DNA of 64,000 nt from a virus: IMG/VR virus record IMGVR_UViG_3300042991_000159, positions 1 to 64,000 of that record; one strand, given 5' to 3'. The notes beneath the pieces were generated by a model. It searched no databases and was not told the DNA's origin. It saw only the letters and a list, made by a program, of their open reading frames with translations. The translations under genes were made by a program, and so were the position numbers. Numbering within the stretch: position 1 is the stretch's first letter; the number at the start of each line of letters is the position of its first letter. Below are positions 11,460 through 25,400 of the stretch, piece by piece.

Positions 11460-12135
11460 ATTTTCTAGTTTGTTTGGCTTGGAGTGGTACGATGCTTTGA
11501 AAGAGGTATTGGAATCTAAGTATTGGAGAGAGATTGGTGCAAAGATAGCTAAGGAGAGAGAGATTTACACCATATACCCGGAGAAGGGTTCTGATACTTT
11601 ATTTAAGGCTTTCCGTACCACTCCTTTATCTCAAGTGAAAGTAGTTATTCTTGGTCAAGACCCTTATCATGATGGTAGTTATGATGGGTTTGCGTTCTCT
11701 AACAGAGACGATGGTCAACATATATCACCTTCACTTAAGAACATTCTGAAAGAAGTTGAAACTGATGTATATAGTGGATTCTATCTTGATTTGAATCCCG
11801 ATCTTGAAAGATGGGCAGAACAGGGAGTTCTTCTTATTAATACAGCACATACTGTACGAAAGGGAGACCCCGGTTCCCATTTGGAGTATTGGAAACCTTT
11901 CACAAATAAGGTATTATTATTGCTACAGCAGCAAGATAGACCGATTGTGTGGATATTGTGGGGTAAGAAGGCAGAAAATGCTGTTGCGGCAGTAAAAAAG
12001 AACGATAAGCATTTATATTTGTCTTCTCCGCACCCTTCTCCTTTCTCAGCTAATTCAGGGTTCTTTGGTAGTAAACCTTTTAGTCAAACAAATAAATTTC
12101 TAACAGATGGTAAACTACAATCAATTAACTGGTAA
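11428..12135 (+). CDS. ung: Uracil-DNA glycosylase (family 1)
   Basis: GQDPYH, SPSLKNI, WAEQGVLLIN, LWG, HPSP and GFFGSKPFS motifs. Confidence 0.95.
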   Translation: MNKMKQQLKDKFSSLFGLEWYDALKEVLESKYWREIGAKIAKEREIYTIYPEKGSDTLFKAFRTTPLSQVKVVILGQDPYHDGSYDGFAFSNRDDGQHISPSLKNILKEVETDVYSGFYLDLNPDLERWAEQGVLLINTAHTVRKGDPGSHLEYWKPFTNKVLLLLQQQDRPIVWILWGKKAENAVAAVKKNDKHLYLSSPHPSPFSANSGFFGSKPFSQTNKFLTDGKLQSINW

Positions 12136-12274
12136 TAGTTCTTATTTTCCAAATTCTTTTAATCTAGAACAACAGCGATTAAATGAGAAAATTTTATCAA
12201 AAATTCGAAAAGAGTTGATAACAGAACAAATAACAGATGAAGAAATATATTATTCACTAATAAAATAATAAAAA

Positions 12275-12580
12275 ATGGCAAACGCACTGGTAAAATTCTG
12301 GGAAAGTATCGAAAAAACAGGAGATGCTATTAAAGCTGCAAGATCAGCACGTTCAGTTCAACGTAAAGCTGAAATGGATGTATCAAAAGCATTCGATGAA
12401 CTTGAAGAAGTTAAAGGAAAGCTTGAAAAAGCTAAAATTGATGCTAAAAATAACGTGGAAACAGGTTTTAAAAATATATACGAAGCCTTTATGAGCGTTA
12501 AAGTTAAGCAACAACGCTTTAATGATGCAGTCACCGTTTATAAGGAACTTTTCGAAGAAGAACCAAAATTACTTTACTAA
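12275..12580 (+). CDS. Hypothetical helical protein
   Basis: Clean ORF with an A-rich initiation region. Confidence 0.7.
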   Translation: MANALVKFWESIEKTGDAIKAARSARSVQRKAEMDVSKAFDELEEVKGKLEKAKIDAKNNVETGFKNIYEAFMSVKVKQQRFNDAVTVYKELFEEEPKLLY

Positions 12581-12583
12581 TGT

Positions 12584-12614
12584 ATTGTATATTATACAAA
12601 AAGTATTATTTTTG
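12584..12614 (+). promoter_or_regulatory. Bacteroidota-type promoter P1 for tRNA block 1
   Basis: -7 element TATTTTTG (12607-12614) and -33-like TTG (12585-12587) with a 19-nt spacer. Confidence 0.65.
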
Positions 12615-12632
12615 TATAAGTAATTACACGTT

Positions 12633-12695
12633 ATGAAAGTTACAACATTACATTTGCTTCCAGAGGAACCGTCTAAACAGAGGGTACTGGAATAA
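12633..12695 (+). CDS. Attenuator leader peptide 1, MKVTTLHLLPEEPSKQRVLE
   Basis: Translated by hand; the run LHLLPEEP matches the downstream Pro/Glu/His/Leu/Leu tRNAs. Confidence 0.8.
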   Translation: MKVTTLHLLPEEPSKQRVLE

Positions 12696-12729
12696 TTGTG
12701 GCTTTGATAAAAAGCTGAATATAACGCAG

Positions 12730-12771
12730 GAACCCTCTTAGTAACACCGGACTAAGGGGGTTCTTTTTTTT
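12730..12771 (+). terminator. Attenuator terminator 1
   Basis: 13-bp stem GAACCCTCTTAGT/ACTAAGGGGGTTC plus T8, ending 2 nt before tRNA-Pro. Confidence 0.9.
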
Positions 12772-12773
12772 AT

Positions 12774-12846
12774 CGGAATGTAGCGCAGTTGGTAGCGTAC
12801 CTGCTTTGGGAGCAGGGGGTCGCAGGTTCGAATCCTGCTATTCCGA
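12774..12846 (+). tRNA. tRNA-Pro(TGG)
   Basis: Cloverleaf folded by hand; CCTGC-TT TGG GA-GCAGG. Confidence 0.95.
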
Positions 12847-12872
12847 CAAATGGCACTAAATAATTCCGTATT

Positions 12873-13010
12873 ATGGCAACAATTAAGACAAAATCAGAAA
12901 GAGTAAAACAAGGTAAGAGAAACCGAAAAGGAATCCATGCCAAAACTCGTAACAGTAAAATAAAAGGATCGAAACATTACGAGAAAGCGTACAAAGGTCA
13001 AGGACGTTAG
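12873..13010 (+). CDS. 45-aa basic protein ending YKGQGR
   Basis: Unannotated ORF MATIKTKSERVKQGKRNRKGIHAKTRNSKIKGSKHYEKAYKGQGR. Confidence 0.7.
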   Translation: MATIKTKSERVKQGKRNRKGIHAKTRNSKIKGSKHYEKAYKGQGR

Positions 13011-13030
13011 GTTAAACCTGATGTTATCAT

Positions 13031-13102
13031 GCCCCGTTCATCTAGTGGTTAGGATAGCAGATTTTCAGTCTGTTCACAAGAGTTCGATTCTCTTACGGGG
13101 TA
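13031..13102 (+). tRNA. tRNA-Glu(TTC)
   Basis: Cloverleaf; GCAGA-TT TTC AG-TCTGT. Confidence 0.9.
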
Positions 13103-13249
13103 CTATTTAACTTGATATGTACTTTCAGGAAAACCTTCTTGAATAGCAGCATTAAGTTCATTCTTAAATAAGTCATAATCAACTATTTTATTAGTTGTCG
13201 AACAACTTGTTAGAACGATTAATAAAAATATTATAGGTATCTTTCTCAT
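13103..13249 (-). CDS. 48-aa small lipoprotein
   Basis: MRKIPIIFLLIVLTS-C16-STTNKIVDYDLFKNELNAAIQEGFPESTYQVK: basic N-terminus, hydrophobic core, lipobox LTSC. Confidence 0.65.
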   Translation of the reverse strand: MRKIPIIFLLIVLTSCSTTNKIVDYDLFKNELNAAIQEGFPESTYQVK

Positions 13250-13314
13250 AAGGTAAAATTAATACACATATATTACAATATGATTAAGAAGAAATTAAGA
13301 TTGCAATAATATAT

Positions 13315-13386
13315 GGTGTTTGTAGCTCAACGGTAGAGTGCCTGATTGTGGATCAGGTGGTGACAGTTCGATCCTGTCCTTACACC
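13315..13386 (+). tRNA. tRNA-His(GTG)
   Basis: G-1:C73, CCTGA-TT GTG GA-TCAGG; two T-T mismatches in the acceptor stem. Confidence 0.9.
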
Positions 13387-13390
13387 CTAT

Positions 13391-13476
13391 GCTCCGGTGG
13401 TGAAATTGGCAGACGCACTGGACTTAAAATCCAGCGATCAGTAATGATCGTACCGGTTCGATTCCGGTTCGGAGTA
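13391..13476 (+). tRNA. tRNA-Leu(TAA)
   Basis: Long variable arm; CTGGA-CT TAA AA-TCCAG. Confidence 0.95.
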
Positions 13477-13495
13477 CTAACTAAAAATTTTTATT

Positions 13496-13951
13496 ATGAA
13501 AATAAACAAAAAGAAGGTAGTTGAACTATCAAGGGATTGGTTTAAAGCGTACCATTGTCCAGATCAGTTTTGGAATGATTTTGCAGAAAAGATTGACGAA
13601 ATTTACTCAGCAGGGGAAGAGGTGAGTGATGAAGAGGAGAGCGAAGAAGAGGGTAGAATTGCAACTGCCATTTTAGATGCCATTAATTCTGGACTGTGGA
13701 AATGGGAGTACAAGAAAAAATTATCACCCGATGATGCGTTTGACTTGCTTACCTGTTTGCAAGATCAAATCCTTAAGGTTAAACTCACCCGCCCTGCCAT
13801 ATCGGAGGAGGAGATAGATCAGTTGACAGAAGAGGTTATATGCGGATTAAAAGCAGGTGATAGAGTATTACCTGAGTTTTATTTCAGGCTCGGAATAGAA
13901 GCCATTAAGGAACTAACTAAAATTAAGCAAGATGAAAACAATAAAATTTGA
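13496..13951 (+). CDS. Hypothetical protein
   Basis: ORF track; no motif. Confidence 0.6.
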   Translation: MKINKKKVVELSRDWFKAYHCPDQFWNDFAEKIDEIYSAGEEVSDEEESEEEGRIATAILDAINSGLWKWEYKKKLSPDDAFDLLTCLQDQILKVKLTRPAISEEEIDQLTEEVICGLKAGDRVLPEFYFRLGIEAIKELTKIKQDENNKI

Positions 13952-14153
13952 AATCGTAAAGGAAATTGAACCAAGTGGTAAAGTATGGTTTCATGTAAGA
14001 ATGAATGGAAGTCATCAAACGGCTAATAGAAGCTATGAGGAAGCTAAAAGAAGTTTGGAAACCTGTAAAACGAATGTGGTTAAATGGGGATATGAAAAGT
14101 ATGAAGAGGTTATTTTTTCAGAATTAGTTGACACATAAAGCCATTAAGGAACT
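13899..14153 (+). repeat. 16-bp direct repeat AAGCCATTAAGGAACT flanking a small ORF
   Basis: Copies at 13899-13914 and 14138-14153. Confidence 0.8.
13932..14138 (+). CDS. Hypothetical protein
   Basis: ORF lying between the direct repeats. Confidence 0.6.
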   Translation: MKTIKFEIVKEIEPSGKVWFHVRMNGSHQTANRSYEEAKRSLETCKTNVVKWGYEKYEEVIFSELVDT

Positions 14154-14276
14154 TAACAGATAAGAGAAGGAAATATTGCATAGATAGTTGAATAAAATAA
14201 GAATAAGTGTGCAATTATTTACTATTTTAATAAGAGCCAAAACACGGAATAAAACAACGCCAAAATACGGAACTAT

Positions 14277-14375
14277 ATGGAAAACACAGACGCAATAATA
14301 TTAATAGGTGGATTTTTATATCTATTATTTTTTGTATGGATGCCTTCAAGTTATGACGATAGAAGAGAAAAATGA
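14277..14375 (+). CDS. 32-aa single-pass membrane peptide
   Basis: MENTDAIILIGGFLYLLFFVWMPSSYDDRREK; ATGA overlap with the next ORF. Confidence 0.5.
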   Translation: MENTDAIILIGGFLYLLFFVWMPSSYDDRREK

Positions 14376-14893
14376 TTAATTGGATAAAATGGAAACAGTT
14401 GATAGCTGGACATACAGCTAAATTAAAAATAAGAATAGTTGTTTCTTACATATCTGTTGGTGATGGTAATGGTGATTTAGCATATAATACATGTAGAGAA
14501 ATCATTGATCGAAATGAAAAAGGTGCATTTGCACACATGGCTCTTGAAGAAGTATTCAGATATCTTGAAAAAGGTTGGAGATGGCCTGATTATATGAATG
14601 ATATAATCCATTCAGGAATGCATAAACAAACAGATATGACTCAAGACCCTTGGATACTTGCATATTGTTGCGCTGTACACCTAGATCGCTATGACCTAAT
14701 AGAGAGATATAGACCTAACTTCTGGTTGTTTCTGCCCGACAAGTGGGCTTGGAGAAGATCACTACTTGGAAAGGTAAACTTCTATTGGCTATGGCGAAGA
14801 ATAACACCTTACAAATGGATGCAACATTTTGTTTATGTATTTTATGGATACATGGAGCTTGCATATAAGAATAAAGTTGTACCTTTACATTGA
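14372..14893 (+). CDS. Hypothetical Trp-rich protein
   Basis: ORF track. Confidence 0.6.
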   Translation: MINWIKWKQLIAGHTAKLKIRIVVSYISVGDGNGDLAYNTCREIIDRNEKGAFAHMALEEVFRYLEKGWRWPDYMNDIIHSGMHKQTDMTQDPWILAYCCAVHLDRYDLIERYRPNFWLFLPDKWAWRRSLLGKVNFYWLWRRITPYKWMQHFVYVFYGYMELAYKNKVVPLH

Positions 14894-14919
14894 ATTTTAA
14901 CCGTTAAAATTATATAAGC

Positions 14920-15369
14920 ATGAAGAAAGTAACAAACGTTTTTAAAGTATTTTTATCGTTAGTTTTACTAATGGTGGTAGGAATTGTAGCATTTGGTCAA
15001 ACAACTGTTCCAACTATTCCAGATTGGACCGACCTCTATGAAAACTACGGTGTATATTTTGCTACTGCTGGTGGAATTGCTGGTATTGCAATGTTCTTAG
15101 GTGAACTCGTAATTCGAGTATTGAAGCTAGCTGTAAAATGGCAAAAAGTAGCTATAATTTGGGTACTATCAGTTGTGGCATCATTTGTAGGTGCATTTGT
15201 GCTCAACGTAGGTTATTTAGCAGAAGCAACATGGTGGGAAACTGTTATATGGGGAGTTTTCTCAGGATTGTTAGCTAATGGTATATGGTCTAGTAACGTA
15301 GCGTTCATTAAATCAATTCTTGAATTTCTCGTTGAGCTTATCAAAGCTAAAATTCCTGCAACAGTATAA
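14920..15369 (+). CDS. Multi-pass membrane protein, holin-like
   Basis: Signal-like N-terminus (AFG/Q), three further hydrophobic helices, GLLANG motif. Confidence 0.55.
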   Translation: MKKVTNVFKVFLSLVLLMVVGIVAFGQTTVPTIPDWTDLYENYGVYFATAGGIAGIAMFLGELVIRVLKLAVKWQKVAIIWVLSVVASFVGAFVLNVGYLAEATWWETVIWGVFSGLLANGIWSSNVAFIKSILEFLVELIKAKIPATV

Positions 15370-15399
15370 AAACTTTAGGGGTGAAATGCCCCCTTTTAC

Positions 15400-15481
15400 G
15401 CTCTTGTGGGGGAATTGGCAGACCCGCTAGTCTTAGGAACTAGTGTCGAAAGGCGTGTCAGTTCGAGTCTGACCGAGAGTA
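15400..15481 (+). tRNA. tRNA-Leu(TAG)
   Basis: Long variable arm; CTAGT-CT TAG GA-ACTAG. Confidence 0.95.
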
Positions 15482-15517
15482 TGATTTTAAATGTTAACAT
15501 TAAAAAAACAATCAGTT

Positions 15518-15697
15518 ATGAACGCAAGAAAATCAGCAGTGTTATTTGCACTTGGAATTGTATGGTTAGGTGCTGTTATATGGGGTTTTGCTCATGGAGT
15601 ACAACAAACTGAAGTTGGTGCTAAAATCGCTTGGATTGGTGGATCATTAGTATTTACAGCTTTAGGTGTATTTCTTTCTTACAAATTGAAAAAATAA
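15518..15697 (+). CDS. Small two-helix membrane protein
   Basis: MNARKSAVLFALG...; two hydrophobic segments; ATG at 15518 preferred over 15491. Confidence 0.65.
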   Translation: MNARKSAVLFALGIVWLGAVIWGFAHGVQQTEVGAKIAWIGGSLVFTALGVFLSYKLKK

Positions 15698-15715
15698 AGT
15701 ATATACAAAGAAAAA

Positions 15716-15746
15716 TTTGTTTTTCTCGAAAAAGGAGTTAAATTTG
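15716..15746 (+). promoter_or_regulatory. Bacteroidota-type promoter P2 for tRNA block 2
   Basis: Consensus match: TTTG (15716-15719), 19-nt spacer, TAAATTTG (15739-15746). Confidence 0.8.
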
Positions 15747-15770
15747 TATTGTACTTAAATTTTTAACACA

Positions 15771-15848
15771 ATGTTAGTTCGATTTAGATATACGAAATAT
15801 TCAAGTTGCAAGGGCACATCCTCTGCAAGATGGGACTTCTATATCTAA
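15771..15848 (+). CDS. Attenuator leader peptide 2, MLVRFRYTKYSSCKGTSSARWDFYI
   Basis: Translated by hand; the 15-codon run RFRYTKYSSCKGTSS matches all ten downstream tRNAs. Confidence 0.85.
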   Translation: MLVRFRYTKYSSCKGTSSARWDFYI

Positions 15849-15893
15849 CTAAAAGAAAATTTTTTATTTTTCATTGTTCAGATTTTGTGATCT

Positions 15894-15925
15894 AAGTCCC
15901 ATTCTTAAACGAGTGGGACTTTTTT
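15894..15925 (+). terminator. Attenuator terminator 2
   Basis: 11-bp stem AAGTCCCATTC/GAGTGGGACTT plus T tract, ending 3 nt before tRNA-Thr. Confidence 0.9.
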
Positions 15926-15928
15926 ATT

Positions 15929-16001
15929 GCCACTGTAGCTCAGTTGGTAGAGCTGTTCACTTGTAATGAACGGGTCGGGGGTTCGATTCCTCTCGGTGGC
16001 T
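15929..16001 (+). tRNA. tRNA-Thr(TGT)
   Basis: Cloverleaf; GTTCA-CT TGT AA-TGAAC. Confidence 0.95.
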
Positions 16002-16029
16002 CAAGTTTAACTTAAAATTCTTTGACGTT

Positions 16030-16524
16030 ATGGCAGTATATTTTATAAATAGTAATGGTATGCATATTAGTAGATCAACGATAGGTCTTATTGATAGTAA
16101 TCAATATAATGTGCAAGTTGGTATTTTACATGGTCCTAACGAAGGATATAAACTTTCGTTTGATGGAGAGATAATTAGAGAACAATTACCATTAAACGAA
16201 TTTATAGTAAGATTAATCGAGGGAGAAACGATTGATAAAAATGGTCCAGAAATACATCGTGATATTCAAACTGTAATTAATGCTTTAAATCGTGGAAAAA
16301 AAGAAGAGATAGAAGCAGTAGCTAGATGGTTAGATCATAGATATTCTAATTTAATAAGAAACGGGAAAATAATATTAATGCAGCATACTTATCGACATTC
16401 TTATTATAGTGAAAGTATTGGTAGCAGAGAGAGGTCTATTCAACAGTCTCAACCTATGACAACAGATGAAGCATATCAAAAATCAGTAACAGATGATGAA
16501 GTCTATTACACAATGATTAAATAA
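16030..16524 (+). CDS. Hypothetical protein
   Basis: ORF track. Confidence 0.65.
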   Translation: MAVYFINSNGMHISRSTIGLIDSNQYNVQVGILHGPNEGYKLSFDGEIIREQLPLNEFIVRLIEGETIDKNGPEIHRDIQTVINALNRGKKEEIEAVARWLDHRYSNLIRNGKIILMQHTYRHSYYSESIGSRERSIQQSQPMTTDEAYQKSVTDDEVYYTMIK

Positions 16525-16525
16525 C

Positions 16526-16599
16526 GCCTCTATAACTCAGTTGGCTAGAGTACCACCCTTTTAAGGTGGGAGTCCTGCGTTCAAGTCGCAGTGGGGGTA
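16526..16599 (+). tRNA. tRNA-Lys(TTT)
   Basis: CCACC-CT TTT AA-GGTGG. Confidence 0.95.
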
Positions 16600-16602
16600 C
16601 AA

Positions 16603-16668
16603 TTAATGACTAATATATTAGTCATTAAGTACCAAAATAAGGCTTAATGACTAATATATTAATCATTA
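16603..16668. repeat. Tandem palindromes
   Basis: Perfect 26-bp palindrome TTAATGACTAATATATTAGTCATTAA (16603-16628) and a near copy at 16644-16668. Confidence 0.85.
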
Positions 16669-16669
16669 T

Positions 16670-16743
16670 ACACACGTAGTTCAACTGGATAGAATAGGTG
16701 GCTACGGACCATCTGGTTGTGGGTTCGAGTCCTACCGTGTGTA
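16670..16743 (+). tRNA. tRNA-Arg(ACG)
   Basis: GGTGG-CT ACG GA-CCATC. Confidence 0.95.
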
Positions 16744-16759
16744 CTAAAAATTAAAAATT

Positions 16760-16891
16760 ATGATACGTAAAATTAGAAAATATATCTACGATAAAAATGA
16801 AGTTAGAAAAATAGCTGGTACTTTTAATCCTTATATTCCATATGAGAAGAGAAAAATAATGGCTATGAGATATTTAGAAATGCATAAATAA
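16760..16891 (+). CDS. 43-aa basic hypothetical protein
   Basis: MIRKIRKYIYDKNEVRKIAGTFNPYIPYEKRKIMAMRYLEMHK fills the gap between two tRNAs. Confidence 0.5.
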   Translation: MIRKIRKYIYDKNEVRKIAGTFNPYIPYEKRKIMAMRYLEMHK

Positions 16892-16892
16892 T

Positions 16893-16965
16893 GGAGCAGT
16901 AGCTCAGTCGGTAGAGCACCAGACTGAAAATCTGGGTGTCGGCAGTTCAATTCTGTCCTGTTCCA
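16893..16965 (+). tRNA. tRNA-Phe(GAA)
   Basis: CCAGA-CT GAA AA-TCTGG. Confidence 0.95.
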
Positions 16966-17037
16966 CATTTAAGAAGTAGTGCAGTTTCGTAGTGGCGGGT
17001 TCTGCGCTCGAAAGAGAACCAAAAAACCCATACCCAT

Positions 17038-17111
17038 GCGGGTTTAGCTCAATTTGGCAGAGCGTCTGCCTTCCAAGCAGAGGGTTGAGAGTTCGAGTCT
17101 CTTGATCCGCA
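17038..17111 (+). tRNA. tRNA-Gly(TCC)
   Basis: TCTGC-CT TCC AA-GCAGA. Confidence 0.95.
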
Positions 17112-17113
17112 CT

Positions 17114-17273
17114 AAAGTATCACTATCAGCATAGGGATTGCCCTAATGTTCTGAGAGAGTGAACGGTTTGGGATTTTGTAAAAAGAATCACTTATTAAGG
17201 CTCTTCTGAGACATTCAAGGAACTCGTAATGTAGTCTTCGGGGAAAGCGGTAGGACTCCGTAAGTGATACTTT
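17114..17273 (+). ncRNA. Unidentified structured RNA (about 160 nt)
   Basis: 11-bp closing stem AAAGTATCACT/AGTGATACTTT with internal hairpins; GC-richer than its surroundings; lies between two tRNAs. Confidence 0.55.
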
Positions 17274-17285
17274 TTAAAATATAAT

Positions 17286-17369
17286 GGGTCGGTGGCTGAG
17301 TGGTTAAAGGCGTTGGACTGTAAATCCAATCGTGTCATGCGTTCGGGGGTTCGAATCCCTCCCTGCCCA
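17286..17369 (+). tRNA. tRNA-Tyr(GTA)
   Basis: Long variable arm; TTGGA-CT GTA AA-TCCAA. Confidence 0.95.
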
Positions 17370-17373
17370 CAAT

Positions 17374-17444
17374 GGTTCTATGTCCGAGTGGCTAGGTCAC
17401 TGTCTGCAAAACAGTTTACACTGGTTCGAGTCCAGTTAGAACCT
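17374..17444 (+). tRNA. tRNA-Cys(GCA)
   Basis: ACTGT-CT GCA AA-ACAGT; U73 discriminator. Confidence 0.95.
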
Positions 17445-17463
17445 CTAACTAAAAATAAGAAAT

Positions 17464-17682
17464 ATGAATTTATACATGGTAGAATTTGACACTACAACTT
17501 ATATAGTCGTGGCAAAAGATGAAGAAGATTTACTTGATCTCTTACACAAAAGAGATTCTGGTTTCCAAAAAGAAGTAGATAGAGGTATTGTTTATATGTG
17601 GGATTTAAGAACTATAGACCCTGTTGAAGTAACTGTTATAAACCAAGATAAACCAAAAATAGTATTTGTCGTATCCCATTAA
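17464..17682 (+). CDS. Hypothetical protein
   Basis: ORF between tRNAs. Confidence 0.65.
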   Translation: MNLYMVEFDTTTYIVVAKDEEDLLDLLHKRDSGFQKEVDRGIVYMWDLRTIDPVEVTVINQDKPKIVFVVSH

Positions 17683-17688
17683 AGTATT

Positions 17689-17772
17689 GGAAGTAATCTG
17701 GCTGGATGAAGGACTGCTCTTGAAAAGCAGTAATACAGTGATGTATTGTGGGTTCGAGTCCTACTGCTTCCG
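17689..17772 (+). tRNA. tRNA-Ser(TGA)
   Basis: Long variable arm, G73; CTGCT-CT TGA AA-AGCAG. Confidence 0.9.
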
Positions 17773-17777
17773 CATAT

Positions 17778-17854
17778 GCATCTGTAGCTCAGTTGGACAG
17801 AGCAACGCCCTTCTAAGGCGTGGGTCAACCGTTCGAATCGGTTCAGGTGTACCA
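17778..17854 (+). tRNA. tRNA-Arg(TCT), encoded CCA
   Basis: ACGCC-CT TCT AA-GGCGT. Confidence 0.95.
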
Positions 17855-17856
17855 CT

Positions 17857-17940
17857 GGAAGTATTCTCCTAAATGGTAAAGGTCCACCCTGCTAAGGTGG
17901 TGTCATTCGTGGCATATAGGTTCGATTCCTGTTACTTCCG
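17857..17940 (+). tRNA. tRNA-Ser(GCT)
   Basis: Long variable arm; CCACC-CT GCT AA-GGTGG; atypical D arm. Confidence 0.9.
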
Positions 17941-17972
17941 CTAACTAAATTATTAATTTAAGAGAGAAAAAA

Positions 17973-18662
17973 ATGAAAACATCAGTAAACATGATTCGTA
18001 AGATAGGTATGTTCGAAATCGAACAACGAACTTTCGATGGATATTTTGAAGCAAATATGTTACTTCAACAATGGAATAGAGTTAAACAGAATACACCAAA
18101 AAAAATAGTTGAATTTCTAAGAAATGAAAAAACAATTGAGTTTATTAAACAAATTAAGAAAGAAGAAGGTATTTATAACTCATTGATACACAGTAGGGGA
18201 GAAAAATCACCAACTGATAATCAAGTAGTTATAATAATCAAAGGAAGAAGAACAAAAAAAGGTCCAACACCAGATCGTGTATTTATGCATCCTTATTTAT
18301 TTGTTGATTTTGCAATGTGGTTAAATCCTAAATTCAAATATCATGTAATTAAATTTGTTTACGATTCGTTAATGGATTATAGAAATAATGCAGGAGATTT
18401 ATATAAAGGACTTTCTCAATCTGTCAGTACACTTACAAATATAAGTTACGCTAGAGTAGGCAAAGGTTTGAATTTCATTGTATTTGGTGAGCATAAAAAA
18501 GGAATTCGTAATACTGGAACAGTTGAACAATTACAGGAACTTAACGATATTCAAAAACAATTAGCGTTTAGTATTGAAATGGGACTTATCACTTCTTTTA
18601 AAGAATTAATGGATACCATGATAAAAATATATAGAAAAAAGCAAAAATTTAATTTATTTTGA
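17973..18662 (+). CDS. KilA-N domain DNA-binding protein
   Basis: QRTFDGYFEAN.LL and MHPYLFVDFAMWLNPKF motifs. Confidence 0.85.
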   Translation: MKTSVNMIRKIGMFEIEQRTFDGYFEANMLLQQWNRVKQNTPKKIVEFLRNEKTIEFIKQIKKEEGIYNSLIHSRGEKSPTDNQVVIIIKGRRTKKGPTPDRVFMHPYLFVDFAMWLNPKFKYHVIKFVYDSLMDYRNNAGDLYKGLSQSVSTLTNISYARVGKGLNFIVFGEHKKGIRNTGTVEQLQELNDIQKQLAFSIEMGLITSFKELMDTMIKIYRKKQKFNLF

Positions 18663-18670
18663 TAACTTTG
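18663..18670 (+). promoter_or_regulatory. Bacteroidota-type -7 promoter element P3 for tRNA block 3
   Basis: TAACTTTG matches TAnnTTTG; no clear -33 element. Confidence 0.55.
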
Positions 18671-18692
18671 TCTTATAATATTTCAAACTTTA

Positions 18693-18797
18693 ATGATCAT
18701 GGCAAAGAAATCAGGTAATAAATCGGCTCCCAAAGATAAAGGAATGGGACAAGGTAAAAAAGGTTCTGGTAAAAAAGGATCATGCAAAAGAAAATAA
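18693..18797 (+). CDS. 34-aa Lys/Gly-rich basic peptide
   Basis: MIMAKKSGNKSAPKDKGMGQGKKGSGKKGSCKRK; stop is 1 nt before leader 3. Confidence 0.6.
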   Translation: MIMAKKSGNKSAPKDKGMGQGKKGSGKKGSCKRK

Positions 18798-18798
18798 A

Positions 18799-18879
18799 AT
18801 GATGAAAACATTAGTTATTAATATATGGAACCAAATTGATGTGGATCAGGCGATCTACAATCAGGGAACTATGTATTAA
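18799..18879 (+). CDS. Attenuator leader peptide 3, MMKTLVINIWNQIDVDQAIYNQGTMY
   Basis: Translated by hand; the 14-codon run VINIWNQIDVDQAI matches all eight downstream tRNAs. Confidence 0.85.
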   Translation: MMKTLVINIWNQIDVDQAIYNQGTMY

Positions 18880-18906
18880 AAAAACCTTTTGAACTATTCA
18901 ACATAG

Positions 18907-18938
18907 AACCCTGATTCCCCTAAGAGTCAGGGTTTTTT
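18907..18938 (+). terminator. Attenuator terminator 3
   Basis: 11-bp stem AACCCTGATTC/GAGTCAGGGTT plus T tract, ending 3 nt before tRNA-Val. Confidence 0.9.
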
Positions 18939-18941
18939 ATT

Positions 18942-19016
18942 GCTTCTTTAACTCAGTTGGTTCAGAGTGCAATTTTTACAAGATTGAAGTCGGTGGTTCG
19001 AATCCATCAAGAAGCA
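18942..19016 (+). tRNA. tRNA-Val(TAC)
   Basis: CAATT-TT TAC AA-GATTG. Confidence 0.9.
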
Positions 19017-19094
19017 CTATCGCATAGAGGTTTGCATGATGTGGAGTCTTCCTCTCGTTAAACAAAAAAATGGTTACAGGGATGTGGCCGCCAC

Positions 19095-19167
19095 GGGGAT
19101 TTAGCTCAGTTGGAAGAGCACTTGATTTGCACTCAAGAGGTCATCGGTTCGACTCCGTTAATCTCCA
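19095..19167 (+). tRNA. tRNA-Ala(TGC)
   Basis: G3:U70 identity pair; CTTGA-TT TGC AC-TCAAG. Confidence 0.95.
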
Positions 19168-19212
19168 CTAAGTAATGTTCATTGACGTATTGTTTAATTA
19201 AAATTATTTTAT

Positions 19213-19626
19213 ATGGTAGAAAAATTAAAAGTCTACACTGCTGGTGGATTTCATGGTGATTGGAGAGAACGAATAAACAAAATTCTTGCAGAGAAATTTA
19301 TTGTTCTTGATCCTTTCAGTAAGGAATTTGATTCTTCTAAAGGTGAACGTAAACATTTATCATATGAGGAATATACAGTTTGGGATTTATGGGCAATTAG
19401 AACAGCAGATATAGTATTTGTATACTCTCAACGTACTAATCCCGGTCAAGGTTATATAGTTGAAGCTGGATATGCTAAAGGACTTGGTAAAACTGTTATT
19501 CTTGTAAGAGAAGAAAACAATGAACATATGCCTGACAAATATCTGAATTTTATTGATTGTGTAGCAGATTTTGTTTGCCACGATTTCAATGAAGGTGTTG
19601 AGTTTCTTACCAGACTTTCACTTTAA
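19213..19626 (+). CDS. Nucleoside 2-deoxyribosyltransferase-like protein
   Basis: VYTAGG, DLWAIRTADIV and G...EAGYAKGLGK motifs. Confidence 0.8.
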   Translation: MVEKLKVYTAGGFHGDWRERINKILAEKFIVLDPFSKEFDSSKGERKHLSYEEYTVWDLWAIRTADIVFVYSQRTNPGQGYIVEAGYAKGLGKTVILVREENNEHMPDKYLNFIDCVADFVCHDFNEGVEFLTRLSL

Positions 19627-19634
19627 AAGAATAA

Positions 19635-19708
19635 TGCCTTGTAGCTCAGTCGGTTAGAGCAGTGGACTGTTAATCCAAAGGTCGTAAGTTCAAGTCTTAC
19701 CGAGGCAG
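19635..19708 (+). tRNA. tRNA-Asn(GTT)
   Basis: GTGGA-CT GTT AA-TCCAA; G73. Confidence 0.95.
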
Positions 19709-19710
19709 CT

Positions 19711-19827
19711 ACTCTCTATATCTCGGATCACGCCCTGAAATGGGAACCGTGGCTGGTATCCACTATAAACTACTACCGGAACAAGTGATTGGATAACTTT
19801 ACGTTTGCGGGATTTGATATAGAGAGT
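19711..19827 (+). ncRNA. Unidentified structured RNA (about 117 nt)
   Basis: 12-bp closing stem ACTCTCTATATC/GATATAGAGAGT; exactly fills the spacer between two tRNAs. Confidence 0.55.
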
Positions 19828-19832
19828 TTTAT

Positions 19833-19906
19833 TGACCCTTAGCACAGATGGTTAGTGCAATTCGCTCATAACGAAAAGGTCGTGTGTTCGATTCACACAG
19901 GGTCAA
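19833..19906 (+). tRNA. tRNA with CAT anticodon (Ile2/lysidine-type or elongator Met)
   Basis: ATTCG-CT CAT AA-CGAAA; paired 1:72. Confidence 0.9.
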
Positions 19907-19951
19907 CAATTTTTCGTATCTTGTAAGCTTAACCAAGTAAAATTTTAAATC

Positions 19952-20755
19952 ATGTGTTTTAAAAACTTATTTAATAGACCTGAGAAACCAGAATTACATC
20001 CTGCAAGACGAGCATTATTATTTGGAATAAACGATTATCCCGGTAGTAGCAGTGATCTAAATGGTTGCGTTAACGATGTTTATGACGTTAAAGAAAAATT
20101 AGATTCTCTTTATCCAGATTTTGTAACAAAAATGTTTACGGATGTAAATGCTACAATATCTACTTTTGAATACGAACTTGCAAAAGAAATTGAAAAACTT
20201 CAAGCAGGAGATGTTTTATTAGTTCATTATTCTGGTCACGGTACTTATGTAACTGATAAGAGTGGTGATGAAGAGGATGGATACGATGAAGCTCTTTATC
20301 TTTATGACGGACCATTAATTGACGATGATATTCGTGGTATGCTAGAAGGTATTCCAGATGGTGCAACGGTAGTACTCATATTTGATTGCTGTTATTCTGG
20401 TACAATTAGCAGATCGGTGTTACCCAAGATAGAAAAAAACCGATTTTACCCAAATCCTGTTAGTAAAAAAAGTACTGGTTCTTTAAAAATAAGAAACAGA
20501 TTTGCGAAAGGTGATAATATGAGATGGATAACATTCTCAGGGTCAGATGAACATCAGACAAGTGCAGATGCTTATATTGATGGAAAATATAATGGAGCAT
20601 TTACATATTTCTTATTAAAATATCTTAAACCGGGAATTACTTATAAACAATGGGCAAACTATGTAAGCGAAGCCTTTGAAAATTCTCGTTTTGAACAAAG
20701 ACCTCAAATAGAAGGACCGGAAGGATTATTAAATAACTTAATATTTTACATTTAA
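19952..20755 (+). CDS. Caspase-like cysteine protease (peptidase C14, metacaspase-type)
   Basis: ALLFGINDY, LNGCVND, HYSGHG and FDCCYSG dyad motifs, QTSADA, GAFT, QRPQ. Confidence 0.92.
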   Translation: MCFKNLFNRPEKPELHPARRALLFGINDYPGSSSDLNGCVNDVYDVKEKLDSLYPDFVTKMFTDVNATISTFEYELAKEIEKLQAGDVLLVHYSGHGTYVTDKSGDEEDGYDEALYLYDGPLIDDDIRGMLEGIPDGATVVLIFDCCYSGTISRSVLPKIEKNRFYPNPVSKKSTGSLKIRNRFAKGDNMRWITFSGSDEHQTSADAYIDGKYNGAFTYFLLKYLKPGITYKQWANYVSEAFENSRFEQRPQIEGPEGLLNNLIFYI

Positions 20756-20764
20756 TATAATATT

Positions 20765-21217
20765 ATGAGAATAATAAAAAGAATTGATCCTTTTTTAAAG
20801 AATGTAGATATAGATAAACTACTTTCAAAATGGTTTCCAGAAATGGAAGAGGATAAAAAAAGAAACATTAAGAGTGAAATATTTAAAAATATTCATTCGA
20901 TTAGAACATTTTGGTATGATAATCCTGATCTTAGATTTTCTCAAGTGCTAATTAATAGTAATTTGATTCCTAATTATCCTGGGATGTGGTACTACTATGA
21001 AGAAGATGAAATCCTTATAGATCAAGGACATGAACTAAGAGATATACTCTTTTGGGGAAGAAATTACAATAAGGAAATGGAACGTCTTCCAAGGACAGAA
21101 TGGATTTTAATCAAGGACATGAGTACTGATCATATTCAGGCTGTCTTAGACGGTGAATTTACCACACACTCAGATTATTTAAAAGCATTTAATGACGAAT
21201 TAGAAAGAAGAAAATAA
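20765..21217 (+). CDS. Hypothetical phage protein
   Basis: W..NPDLRFSQ and IKDMSTDHI motifs recur in phage hypotheticals. Confidence 0.7.
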   Translation: MRIIKRIDPFLKNVDIDKLLSKWFPEMEEDKKRNIKSEIFKNIHSIRTFWYDNPDLRFSQVLINSNLIPNYPGMWYYYEEDEILIDQGHELRDILFWGRNYNKEMERLPRTEWILIKDMSTDHIQAVLDGEFTTHSDYLKAFNDELERRK

Positions 21218-21224
21218 TAATTAC

Positions 21225-21297
21225 TGGTGTGTAGTTCAGTTGGTAGAATAGTGCTCTCCAAAAGCAAAGGTCGGGAGTTCGAGTCTCTCCATGCCAG
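21225..21297 (+). tRNA. tRNA-Trp(CCA)
   Basis: GTGCT-CT CCA AA-AGCAA. Confidence 0.95.
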
Positions 21298-21304
21298 CAA
21301 ATAT

Positions 21305-21377
21305 AGCCTCTAGGTCAAACGGTTAAGATGTCAGCCTGTCACGCTGTACGGAGCGGGTTCAACTCCCGTAGGGGCTG
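21305..21377 (+). tRNA. tRNA-Asp(GTC)
   Basis: TCAGC-CT GTC AC-GCTGT; G73. Confidence 0.9.
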
Positions 21378-21429
21378 CTATATTTAAAAACATATAATTA
21401 GCATCAAATATGTTATTTTATATGCAAAT

Positions 21430-21503
21430 GCTCATGTAACTCAGTTGGTTAGAGAGCCTCTCTGATAAGGAGGAAGTCGGTAGTTCAAATCTATCCATGA
21501 GCA
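21430..21503 (+). tRNA. tRNA-Ile(GAT)
   Basis: CCTCT-CT GAT AA-GGAGG. Confidence 0.95.
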
Positions 21504-21517
21504 CTATTTAAAAAGTA

Positions 21518-21583
21518 AAGGGAAGATCGGTCCGATTCCGAAGCAGAGTAATCTGTACTAGTGTAATGGCTATGCACACCCTT
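21518..21583 (+). ncRNA. Circularly permuted tRNA-like element (T arm, capped acceptor stem, D arm)
   Basis: AAGGG, TCGG-TCCGATT-CCGA, GCAGA-GTAA-TCTGT, TA-GTGT-AATGGCTAT-GCAC-A, CCCTT. Confidence 0.55.
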
Positions 21584-21588
21584 GTCAT

Positions 21589-21662
21589 TGACTCATGGTG
21601 TAACAGGTTAACACGTGGCACTTTGGATGCTAAGAGTCTCCGTTCGAGTCGGAGTGAGTCAA
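21589..21662 (+). tRNA. tRNA-Gln(TTG)
   Basis: U1:A72; TGGCA-CT TTG GA-TGCTA. Confidence 0.95.
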
Positions 21663-21686
21663 CTATATTAACTAAAAACAAAATGT

Positions 21687-22214
21687 ATGAAAGTATTACG
21701 TCTTATTTTGACGAGAAAATGTAATCGTAGTTGTGAGAGATGTTGCAACAAACAAGACGCTTTTGTTGAAAACCGTGTTCCTAATATTCTTGAACTTGGT
21801 TATAATTTTAGTGATTTTGATACAATTATTCTTACAGGTGGTGAACCATTGCTTGAATTTGACTCTCTTAAATTAACGATAGCTTTAATTAGAAAAGTTA
21901 GTCCAGATTCAAAGATTATTGTGTACACAGCGAATGTTCAAATGAAAGATGAAATCATTGAACTACTATATCTTGTAGATGGAATTACTGTAACAGTACA
22001 CGAACAAGAAGATGTTGATGATTTTAATCGCCTAAACTTTTGGATGCTTCGATTGAAGCGTTACAAAATAGATAATAATAAAACTTTGCGACTTAATATA
22101 TTTAAAGGTGTTAAAATATATATGCAAAACTCAAGTCTCTGGAAGATAAAAGATAACATAGAATGGATCGAAGATTGTCCATTGCCAGAGAACGAAATAA
22201 TTGCACAATATTAA
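21687..22214 (+). CDS. Minimal radical SAM protein
   Basis: CNRSCERC (CxxxCxxC) and LTGGEP. Confidence 0.85.
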   Translation: MKVLRLILTRKCNRSCERCCNKQDAFVENRVPNILELGYNFSDFDTIILTGGEPLLEFDSLKLTIALIRKVSPDSKIIVYTANVQMKDEIIELLYLVDGITVTVHEQEDVDDFNRLNFWMLRLKRYKIDNNKTLRLNIFKGVKIYMQNSSLWKIKDNIEWIEDCPLPENEIIAQY

Positions 22215-22222
22215 CATTTTTA

Positions 22223-22253
22223 TTGTGTATATTAATTTAAAGTGTTAGATTTG
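22223..22253 (+). promoter_or_regulatory. Bacteroidota-type promoter for the last tRNA
   Basis: TTG (22223-22225), 20-nt spacer, TAGATTTG (22246-22253). Confidence 0.6.
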
Positions 22254-22264
22254 TTAATGTATAT

Positions 22265-22338
22265 TGCGAGTTGGCGCAGATGGTCAGCGCACAAGATTCA
22301 TGATCTTGGGGTCACGGGTTCGAGTCCCGTACTCGCTA
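22265..22338 (+). tRNA. tRNA-Met(CAT), initiator-like
   Basis: T1.T72 mismatch, TGCGAG acceptor; CAAGA-TT CAT GA-TCTTG. Confidence 0.9.
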
Positions 22339-22417
22339 CAAAACTTATTATTTGGTTCATAGCAATAATGTTTTAGGTTAGTGATTATTTGGTTAAGTGA
22401 GAGTAGTGAGAATGAAG

Positions 22418-22445
22418 AAGGAGAGCTGGTTGGCTCTCCTTTTTT
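22418..22445. terminator. Terminator between convergent transcription units
   Basis: AAGGAGAGCT/GGCTCTCCTT stem plus T tract. Confidence 0.85.
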
Positions 22446-22473
22446 ATTTCCCTTACGAAAAAATTTACCGTTA

Positions 22474-25400
22474 TTATTTCTTGTAAACTTGATCAGCAGC
22501 ACTTTGTAATTTTTGATACTGAACCGGTCCCGGTATAAGTTTCTGGATGTCTCTCCAAGTACGACTCTTACCTTTGCTCGGACCACTCTGAAGTATATCT
22601 CCTTCTGCTCCTTCTGTAATCAGAGTCATAGCAGAATCTATAGCTTTAGCAGCATCTACTACAACTGAGAAAGCAGGAATAGCATTACGTGCAAGACGTT
22701 CAAATTCAATTGGATTGATATAGAATTGTACATCAGTAGCGAGTCTTCCTATTTGATTAATCATGAATATGTAAGCCATCTTCTTTTTTGAATTTTTATC
22801 ATCATCATCGTCTACTGCTGCTTTCAGAGCAAGTGTTAGACCTGTAAGTAATAGGAATATAAAAATTTCAGTCATGTTTTTACGCATATTAGCAGCATCG
22901 GTTTCAGTAAAACCTTCACCTATTAAATCATCAAATTTTGTATTAAATCCTACAAGTTTACGTAAAAGTTGATACGTAAGATTAAATGTACTACTTATTG
23001 CATTCATATTATTTTCAGCAGTATAATAAGCAACATAACTACGATAACGACCTTTTCTATTAAGAAAATTTTCACCTGTTTTTTGATTAATCAGTTGATA
23101 ATCATCAAATTCAGCACGAAATCTTTCTGCAAATCCCTGATAAGCCCATGTACGAAATTGACTCAAAGCACGACCAATAAATTTACGTTTTACAAGTAGA
23201 GGAGAATCAGGATCATAGTTACCATGATTCATTTTAACAAGTTTATCAATACGTCGTTTAAGTTCAAAAATTTTCTTTTCATCAATAGTAACTCCGTCTT
23301 TAAGGTTGCCGTCGGTTTCATAGGCATCCCATAAACTAATTTCTTTACCGTCTGCTGTTGTAACTTTTTCTTCCATCATCATAGCAATCATCACAGGAGC
23401 CTGATTAAAGTATTCCGAACGTGATTGCGGAGAAAAAGGATTAGCCCATTCAAGCCCTTTACCTACTCTCTTGAACATACTTGGTGTAGTGTCTTTATAT
23501 ATTTCATTACGTGCCTCTTTAAGAGTATCAAACTTGTTCATAAGTTCTCTAATCTTTTTTGCATTACCGTTAAGACCGTTCCATGTATTAAATGAGTAGT
23601 TACGTCCAACAGAATTTAATACAAGAGCTTGAGCCTTCCAAAAATTCTTACTTGAGTAATTACGTCCGTCTGAAGCTTCTATTACGTTAGACATAATACC
23701 AAATCCCATATTAGCAAAAGCAGCAAAAACGTTCCAACCCATACCTTTAAGTTGGATATATTTAAGAAGAATATCACCATATTTAGATGCAATTTTTACA
23801 CCACCCAGTACGTCGAGTTGTTCTCGAACAACTTCAGACCTAGCATCGTAAGTATCTTGATCTATTTTTTCTTTCTCTAAAAGACTGTCAAGTTCTTTTA
23901 AACTATTTTCTAAGAGCGTTTTGAGTTCCTTCTCTTTCTCAGTAAGAATCTTTTTCTTGCTTGCACCTTCTGGTCTATTAGAGGGATAATGCCAATAAGC
24001 TACTTCCATAAAGTTGTCAAGCATTTTTCTTAAATTTTCTAATCCTTTTTCAGTAATTAGATTTTTGTGTTTATCTCTAACATCTTGACCAGAAGCGTTT
24101 GTTCTTTTTTCAAGACCACGACGAATAATATCATCTGCAATACGCATTTGATCTTCGATAGCTGCACGATGATTATATCCAATAGCCATAGCAGAAAAAG
24201 CCTTCATAATACGTCCAAGATCAAAAGATTTTTCTTGAGCGAGTTCATTCAAGTAATCTTTTCTCCATTTATCTACAAGCTCTGTATCAGGACTTTTACC
24301 GTTATTCTCAGCTCTATAACTTGTATCTTTTAATTCAAGATAGTTTTTTAATTTTTGACGATTATTTGTGAGATGCTGGAATTGAAAATCTTTTCTATCT
24401 TCGGGAGTAGCAGTTGTTCCAAGATCATCTGCTCTAACTGCTTTTCTGAGATCATCTTTACTTTTACTAAATCCTGCTAATAGACCGTTTTCTGTTATTA
24501 CTTCAGATAGTTTTTGATCTAAAATAGGAATAGAGTTCATCTGCATAAAAGATATTTTTTCGTGAGGAAGATATAGTTTCATGATTTTCATCAGATCAAA
24601 CATAAAATTATATAATTCCAAATAACTCTTATTGTTTTGAATTTGTTGGAATTTCTGATCATGAAATCCTGTATCTTCTCCATCAGCAATTTTTTTAGGA
24701 ACAGAACGTACATACTTATTAGTAGGATTAATATGAAGTCCATTAGGTCTTACATTATCAAATCCTTTTTCCATAGCTTCTGCATACAAGAAAGGAGAAT
24801 TTCTTATTTCCCATCCTTCAATATAACTTTCTATAATAGCTACATTTTCTCCATATTCACCTTCCGCTATTTTTCTACGTGATTCTCTATCAATCTTATA
24901 ATCTCTAATTTTCTTTTCATTAATATCATAATATTCTTTATAACCGTCTTCTCCAAGTAATTCTTTTAGTTCGGCTATATGAACCTCTTTTTGTGCTTGA
25001 GTAGGTTCAGGAGCATTAGTAAGTTCTGCATCCCAGAATAGAATACGTGGGTCGAATACAGTAGTAAATTTTTGCTGTTCCCCCATAAATTTTCTATTAG
25101 CCCTTTTAATTATTTCAAAAGCAGCTCTATCATCTGTTTGTTTATAAGCAGAAGCAAAAGCACGATCTCTTTCATTTCTTATTTTGGATTGCCAATCAAA
25201 AAATGATTGAGTCCAACGAAACACCATTTCTCCTGTTAAGCGTGAATCATCATTACTTTGAGTCTGCCTAAAAATATCAAAGTTTTTTAAACCGGTAGCT
25301 TTTATAAGACTATCTAATTTAGCAAACACTTGGTCTGTTTCTAATTTAGCAGCATAATTTGCATCTTTCACCCAAGCGTGCATTGCTTGGAGAAGAATAT

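Follow-up and report, generated by a model that had tools for sequence, protein, structure and literature searches.

How might a phage control the tRNA genes that it carries? To our knowledge, the regulation of phage tRNA genes is essentially unknown. Their purpose has been debated for fifty years, with codon compensation on one side and the replacement of tRNAs destroyed by host defences on the other (PMC10264068, PMC11464382). In the locus considered here, a short open reading frame and a terminator hairpin stand directly before a block of nine tRNA genes, and an earlier note had interpreted them as a leader-peptide attenuator. Our analysis supports this interpretation: the reading frame, the codons, a protector hairpin, an antiterminator, a terminator and the target genes are all present and in register (Table 1).

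The window, that is, the whole stretch of DNA analysed, comprises the first 64 kb of a 99,795-bp record with a G+C content of 34.6%. Shine-Dalgarno sequences are absent from its genes, whose start regions are A-rich, and a large protein adjoining the tRNA cluster shows distant similarity to an RNA-polymerase subunit of crAss-like phages; these features suggest that the source is probably an uncultured, distantly crAss-like phage with a host among the Bacteroidota. The phage carries 24 tRNA genes representing all 20 amino acids, all of them on the plus strand between 12774 and 22339 (ARAGORN), and one tmRNA gene, which lies outside the window at 93166-93487 of the genome. The tRNA genes constitute a near-minimal full decoding set, with one U34 tRNA for each four-codon box and one tRNA for each two-codon set, together with Arg(acg) and two tRNAs with a CAT anticodon. 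In block 3, the target of the unit studied here, the order is Val(tac), Ala(tgc), Asn(gtt), CAT, Trp(cca), Asp(gtc), Ile(gat), Gln(ttg) and another CAT; each of the two CAT tRNAs may be tRNA-Ile2, elongator Met or initiator Met. The cluster also contains four protein genes between its tRNA genes. Those for the deoxyribosyltransferase-like, Peptidase_C14 and radical-SAM proteins follow the unit-3 terminator and would share the regulation of block 3. Both CAT tRNAs have private TAnnTTTG boxes upstream, and hence they may also be expressed without attenuator control. Several further elements were noticed in the cluster: a structured element between two block-3 tRNAs, a 45-codon frame without a Pfam match that is the second small basic one in the cluster, and a hairpin before tRNA-Leu(tag), because of which this tRNA perhaps belongs only loosely to block 1.

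Table 1. Positions of the attenuator parts, the sister units and neighbouring features, in the numbering of the window
Feature	Position	Strand	Description
Unit 1	12633-12765	+	20-codon leader (12633-12695), antiterminator, terminator; before tRNA-Pro, Glu, His, Leu and Leu
Very basic ORF	12873-13010		45 codons; between tRNA-Pro and tRNA-Glu
Short G+C hairpin with T run	15378-15394	both	after a 149-codon ORF, directly 5' of tRNA-Leu(tag)
Unit 2	15771-15921	+	25-codon leader (15771-15848), antiterminator of 9-10 bp, terminator; before ten tRNAs
KilA-N domain protein	17973-18662		embedded among the tRNA genes
Candidate sigma-A -7 box TAACTTTG	18663-18670	+	Bacteroidota TAnnTTTG pattern; transcript start near 18675
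Lys/Gly/Ser-rich ORF	18699-18797	+	32 codons, from translation; stop one base 5' of the leader ATG
Unit-3 leader ORF	18799-18879	+	ATG at 18799; 26 codons, then TAA (18877-18879)
Sensing run, codons 6-19	18814-18855	+	Val Ile Asn Ile Trp Asn Gln Ile Asp Val Asp Gln Ala Ile
Protector (anti-antiterminator) hairpin	18836-18864	+	-11.5 kcal/mol; extended form 18818-18879, -22.1 kcal/mol; minimum-free-energy folds
Antiterminator 5' strand	18859-18874	+	in the 3'-terminal codons of the leader
Antiterminator 3' strand	18901-18916	+	18905-18916 doubles as the terminator 5' arm; helix -15.1 kcal/mol
Intrinsic terminator	18905-18938	+	stem of 12-13 bp, 6-nt loop, six T; -17.8 kcal/mol
Block 3	18942-22339	+	nine tRNAs and four protein genes; ARAGORN, Rfam, Pfam
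Nucleoside 2-deoxyribosyltransferase-like protein	19213-19626		embedded among the tRNA genes
Structured element of ~117 nt	19711-19827		12-bp closing stem; z = -2.4; 3' of tRNA-Asn and 5' of the first CAT tRNA
TAnnTTTG boxes	19800-19807, 22246-22253	+	12-26 nt 5' of the CAT tRNAs at 19833 and 22265
Caspase-family (Peptidase_C14) protein	19952-20755		embedded among the tRNA genes
Small radical-SAM/4Fe-4S protein	21687-22214		embedded among the tRNA genes

The codons of the unit-3 leader provide the first line of evidence. The run from GTT to ATC lies exactly where it had been placed before, and within it codons 6-19 specify only Val, Ile, Asn, Trp, Gln, Asp and Ala. Together with Met, which occupies codons 1-2, these are exactly the eight amino acids of the nine tRNAs downstream of the terminator, and the run contains one or more codons cognate to each of the block-3 tRNAs other than Met. 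Codons 3-5 specify Lys, Thr and Leu, which are amino acids of the other blocks. The 14 positions are filled by 12 different codons, and the sampling of all three Ile codons (ATT, ATA, ATC) and of both Asn (AAT, AAC) and both Gln codons (CAA, CAG) is as had been claimed. The set of seven sensed amino acids named in the earlier note is likewise exact, and such a match is repeated twice in sister units; what had been missed is the eighth amino acid of the block, Met. Across six frames of the genome, runs of at least 14 block-3 amino acids occur in 8 of the 58,282 stop-free 26-codon windows, the real one counted. The sequence context of the leader ATG falls at the 98.5th percentile among all ATGs of the genome and at the median among the starts of long ORFs, suggesting that the start site is gene-like and usable. 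Directly 5' of the leader is the Lys/Gly/Ser-rich ORF, the last 14 residues of which are all block-2 amino acids; a Pfam search with it returned no family above threshold, and its translation may be coupled to that of the leader, or it may encode a small basic protein.

The RNA elements predicted for unit 3 are arranged around this run. The protector hairpin, which holds the regulatory codons, was recovered at the coordinates that had been proposed for it and is seen in the whole-leader minimum-free-energy fold; in the folds it largely sequesters the antiterminator strand when a ribosome is at codons 2-5. The antiterminator helix was also confirmed, as 8 bp and 6 bp separated by a 2x2 internal loop, and its invasion of the terminator 5' arm is borne out by the strand that the two structures share. 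In a consensus scan the terminator comprises 13 pairs at 18905-18936, with six T after them. Only 3 nt separate the end of the terminator from tRNA-Val, which begins at 18942. The duplex between leader and terminator arm has a free energy of -19.0 kcal/mol, and the fold of the whole unit-3 region has a z-score of -5.3, with none of 200 shuffles as stable. The predicted helix energies are of the classical order of magnitude for such elements.

Two sister units in the same cluster share this organization. Codons 6-13 of the unit-1 leader specify only Leu, His, Pro and Glu, and codons 4-18 of the unit-2 leader only Arg, Phe, Tyr, Thr, Lys, Ser, Cys and Gly, the same eight amino acids as those of its tRNAs, which follow in the order Thr, Lys, Arg, Phe, Gly, Tyr, Cys, Ser, Arg and Ser. 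Each of the two Arg boxes and of the two Ser boxes is sampled by the unit-2 run. Across the three units, the complementarity to the terminator 5' arm is located at the 3' end of the leader ORF. Dinucleotide-shuffled leaders paired as well with this arm in none of 1000 cases for unit 3, in 1/1000 for unit 2 and in 39/1000 for unit 1.

Folding of the full leader at equilibrium with a parked ribosome was tried as a model of the switch and set aside, as no switch was visible: the probability of the terminator is 0.84-0.99 in nearly all ribosome states and drops, to 0.45, with the ribosome at codon 10 alone. This dominance implies that the switch can only be kinetic, as in trp. The full-leader model was replaced by truncated transcripts that end (a) before the terminator 3' arm is made or (b) before the terminator 5' arm is made. 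In the former, the unit-3 antiterminator is predicted to form with the ribosome at codons 2-18 and to be lost past codon 18-19; the last permissive position is codon 13 in unit 1 and codon 17 in unit 2. In the latter, the antiterminator strand is 0.21 free with the ribosome at codons 2-5 and 0.43-0.73 free at codons 6-17, and is covered from about codon 19. The predicted stall window thus spans codons 6-17 in unit 3, as against a codon run of 6-19, and codons 3-16 in unit 2, as against 4-18; in unit 1 the two agree at the 3' edge only (codon 13). Within these models, the coincidence of stall window and run is the best structural argument that the ribosome reads the run to set the switch. The antiterminator also forms in the ribosome-free truncated transcript, which leaves the state of an untranslated leader undefined.

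We therefore consider it probable, at roughly 0.72, that unit 3 is a working ribosome-mediated (leader-peptide) transcription attenuator gating the tRNA genes of block 3. The sequence parts, their register, the statistics and the fold predictions come directly from this analysis; translation of the leader, its coupling to transcription and the regulatory outcome we infer. Transcription would begin upstream, perhaps from the box at 18663, and a ribosome would then translate the 26-codon leader. With fast decoding, the ribosome at the leader end would cover 18859-18874, the terminator would fold and the polymerase would stop before tRNA-Val. A stall within codons 6 to ~18, caused by scarcity of charged tRNA for Val, Ile (ATA included), Asn, Trp, Gln, Asp or Ala, would melt the protector hairpin and leave that strand free; it would then pair with 18901-18916 before the terminator 3' arm is made, permitting readthrough into the nine tRNA genes, with RNase P releasing the first tRNA from the leader. 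The expected outcome is block-by-block negative feedback on tRNA supply, which, with units 1 and 2, would extend to all 20 amino acids through three independent gates. On this model the phage probably makes block-3 tRNAs only when ribosomes run short of them, and block-specific induction by inhibitors of IleRS or TrpRS is a reasonable prediction, qualified by the three codons of other blocks at positions 3-5.

How transcription enters the unit is seen less clearly. In units 1 and 2 a TAnnTTTG box precedes the leader ATG by 19 and 25 nt, respectively, and the box nearest to unit 3 is separated from its leader by the 32-codon ORF. The pattern occurs 91 times in the window as against 82 expected and is not enriched overall, and these promoter assignments are therefore tentative. 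A transcriptome study of Flavobacterium reports a TAnnTTTG -7 box at -12 to -5, initiation without Shine-Dalgarno sequences and strong signs of leader-peptide attenuation in front of amino-acid operons (PMC9723704). Should the region be transcribed by a phage RNA polymerase and not by that of the host, hairpin-dependent termination may fail.

The alternative that survives best is that the leader is a true translated codon sensor with an output other than the hairpin switch, such as Rho access, RNase cleavage or stability, or processing of the first tRNA, the terminator being a constant partial stop. The codon match shows that decoding matters and not by what route, the terminator is favoured in nearly all equilibrium folds, and its hairpin abuts the 5' end of a tRNA, all of which would suit such a sensor. 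However, a sensor of this kind has no need of antiterminator complementarity far beyond chance in units 2 and 3, of an antiterminator placed exactly under the terminating ribosome, or of a free-strand window that matches the codon run, and we regard this alternative as unlikely.

Much less probable is the possibility that the hairpin is an ordinary terminator of the upstream transcript carrying the KilA-N gene and the small ORF, with the tRNA block expressed separately and the codons of the short frame coincidental. It is true that short ORFs are common in AT-rich DNA, and the absence of TAnnTTTG enrichment agrees with this possibility, but it would require a triple coincidence with an exact partition of the genetic code. 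The 20 amino acids are divided 4/8/8 among the three leaders in the same way as among the tRNA blocks; the summed length of the runs is 37, which was attained by none of 300,000 random 4/8/8 partitions (maximum 34, median 7-8). Furthermore, the three strongest plus-strand terminators between 12 and 24 kb each stand right after such a leader and right before a tRNA. Coincidence would also have to yield the matching antiterminators and the unusually diverse codons, and the design recurs in phiCbK-like phages.

Similarly improbable is the proposal that the short ORFs are functional micro-peptides or gene remnants, the composition of which reflects peptide function. Small ORFs are indeed frequent within phage tRNA regions, as in T5, but the three leader peptides share neither motif nor composition, their composition instead following that of the downstream tRNAs. 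Synonymous codon choice points in the same direction. The three runs use 34 distinct codons at 37 positions, a diversity that 20 of 20,000 random synonymous draws from phage codon usage attain, and they over-sample rare codons, including GGC, TCC, CGA, ACG, GCG and GTG, which have a usage of 2-8% in phage genes. Such diversity would be meaningless for a peptide, and it suggests that the runs sense decoding by particular tRNAs, wobble included.

A further argument against a peptide function comes from phiCbK-like Caulobacter phages, an unrelated family in which the same codon-matched design was confirmed at the level of sequence. There, a short ORF annotated as a hypothetical protein (e.g. gp335) is followed by an annotated rho-independent terminator and then by Pro, Lys, Leu and Ser tRNAs, with Thr, His and Ala tRNAs also present in the block of some members. 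Residues within the set Pro/Thr/Lys/Leu/His/Ala/Ser account for 41 of 44 in the leader of phiCbK, 42 of 44 in that of CcrBL10 and 35 of 38 in that of CcrColossus. The CcrColossus and CcrBL10 leaders do not align and read differently, yet their composition is the same, contrary to expectation for a conserved micro-peptide. A second short ORF in these genomes carries an Arg/Gln/Phe/Val/Ile run before a block of Phe, Val, Ile and Gln (and Arg) tRNAs, giving two units per genome. These units differ from unit 3 in belonging to an unrelated family with a GC-rich genome, in their longer leaders (31-47 codons) and in a looser match where tRNAs have been lost; the phiCbK leader, for instance, keeps Thr, His and Ala codons with no such tRNAs annotated in its block. 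The leaders are not mentioned in the phiCbK genome paper. One tRNA of CcrBL10 (13820-13909 of locus L164), 90 nt long with a long variable arm and the anticodon TTT, was called Lys, for which a class-II body is unusual.

Small coding sequences beside the T5 tRNAs include no obvious codon-matched leaders, and such leaders are therefore not universal. An automatic scan for terminators and best ORFs called no codon-matched gate at the Kolpuevirus and PaP1 loci; the same scan divided block 2 in two at a weak hairpin and failed to call units in phiCbK-like phages, and it represents a first look only. Neither megablast nor blastn against 50,697 phage records returned a close relative, the matches being confined to scattered tRNAs, and scans of IMG/VR with four proteins and one tRNA-Val pattern returned one tRNA-free contig and nothing else. 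The near-complete phage sequence was found in only one sequencing run, a cave metagenome, and the runs listed for this DNA include no RNA run. When contigs of four runs were compared with the window, two runs were found to have pieces identical to 18650-18932, and two sediment runs contain relatives that match other parts of the tRNA cluster at about 85-96%; among the differences listed, none concerned the leader regions. The KilA-N neighbour was tried as a guide to related arrays and rejected: it has hundreds of homologues, and the 160 loci retrieved with it contain at most two tRNAs each, so that the gene is a mobile one and cannot serve as a guide. Matches to a uracil-DNA glycosylase, considered as possible relatives, proved to be bacterial DNA filed as phage. 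In the record CAKLQH020000011.1, filed as 'Acinetobacter phage MD-2021a', the 40 kb examined are bacterial chromosome (lpxK, rpsA, type II secretion).

Comparison with known systems places unit 3 closest to the attenuators of amino-acid operons. Multivalent examples are the E. coli and Salmonella ilvGMEDA (Leu/Val/Ile) and thr (Thr/Ile) attenuators, and related ones precede trp, his, leu and pheA. As in these, a short leader carries a run of regulatory codons, the ribosome position selects among protector, antiterminator and terminator, the stop codon lets a finishing ribosome cover the antiterminator, and one leader may serve several amino acids. In contrast, the targets of unit 3 are tRNA genes rather than biosynthetic enzymes, 7-8 amino acids are sensed via mostly single, varied codons instead of repeats of one or two, and the element is that of a phage, likely in a Bacteroidota setting, with no sequence relation to the Rfam leader families. 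The pheM leader of E. coli pheST resembles it in being a leader-peptide attenuator that acts on the translation apparatus of the sensed amino acid; unlike unit 3, it is a cellular element that governs a synthetase and responds to a single amino acid. T-box riboswitches likewise let tRNA status feed back on genes of the decoding apparatus through a choice between terminator and antiterminator, but a T-box binds one uncharged tRNA directly, without a ribosome. The least probable of the alternatives, a T-box-like RNA-only sensor in which uncharged tRNAs pair with codon-like specifiers and no translation takes place, shares with T-box leaders this toggling and their government of translation-related genes, but an Rfam cmscan of 12000-23000 with an E cutoff of 1 returned nothing but tRNAs and matches at chance level, with no T-box and no His, Leu, Thr or Trp leader, and 14 in-frame codons with a good start and a stop that covers the antiterminator are the signature of reading by a ribosome rather than of a single specifier loop. 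Another parallel is the long tRNA gene array of Anabaena, which is silent unless translation is impaired (PMC8421152). It resembles block 3 in that extra tRNA genes are expressed under translational stress, and differs in being cellular and a single operon, the main text of that report describing no leader peptide, terminator or attenuation (PMC8421152).

A full-text literature search found no account of leader-peptide (trp-operon-style) attenuation of tRNA genes. While the class of mechanism proposed for unit 3 is textbook, the novelty lies in the stable-RNA-gene target, the sensing of many codons and the division of the entire code between three gates. If the attenuator reading is true, classical attenuation is extended to stable RNA genes and to sensing by many different single codons, and the compact, modular element could report the availability of individual tRNAs. 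The presence of the same design in the unrelated phiCbK-like family suggests that codon-matched tRNA attenuators are widespread, and they are likely to have been overlooked because their leader ORFs are too short for annotation.

A broader interpretation, which we offer only tentatively and consider doubtful, is that the three attenuators together represent an isoacceptor-resolved surveillance of the host tRNA pool. The full set would then be mostly silent, with only the needed block induced, as an inducible counter-defence against, for example, the cutting of tRNAs by host anticodon nucleases or other tRNA-targeting defences, and it would not be simple compensation for codon usage. Under such surveillance, the Lys/Gly/Ser-rich ORF and the private promoter-like boxes of the CAT tRNAs would add a hierarchy among the blocks. 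For the attenuator reading itself the implication is more direct: if it is true, phages gauge the supply of tRNAs and replenish it as needed, which favours the replacement view of phage tRNAs and makes it testable.
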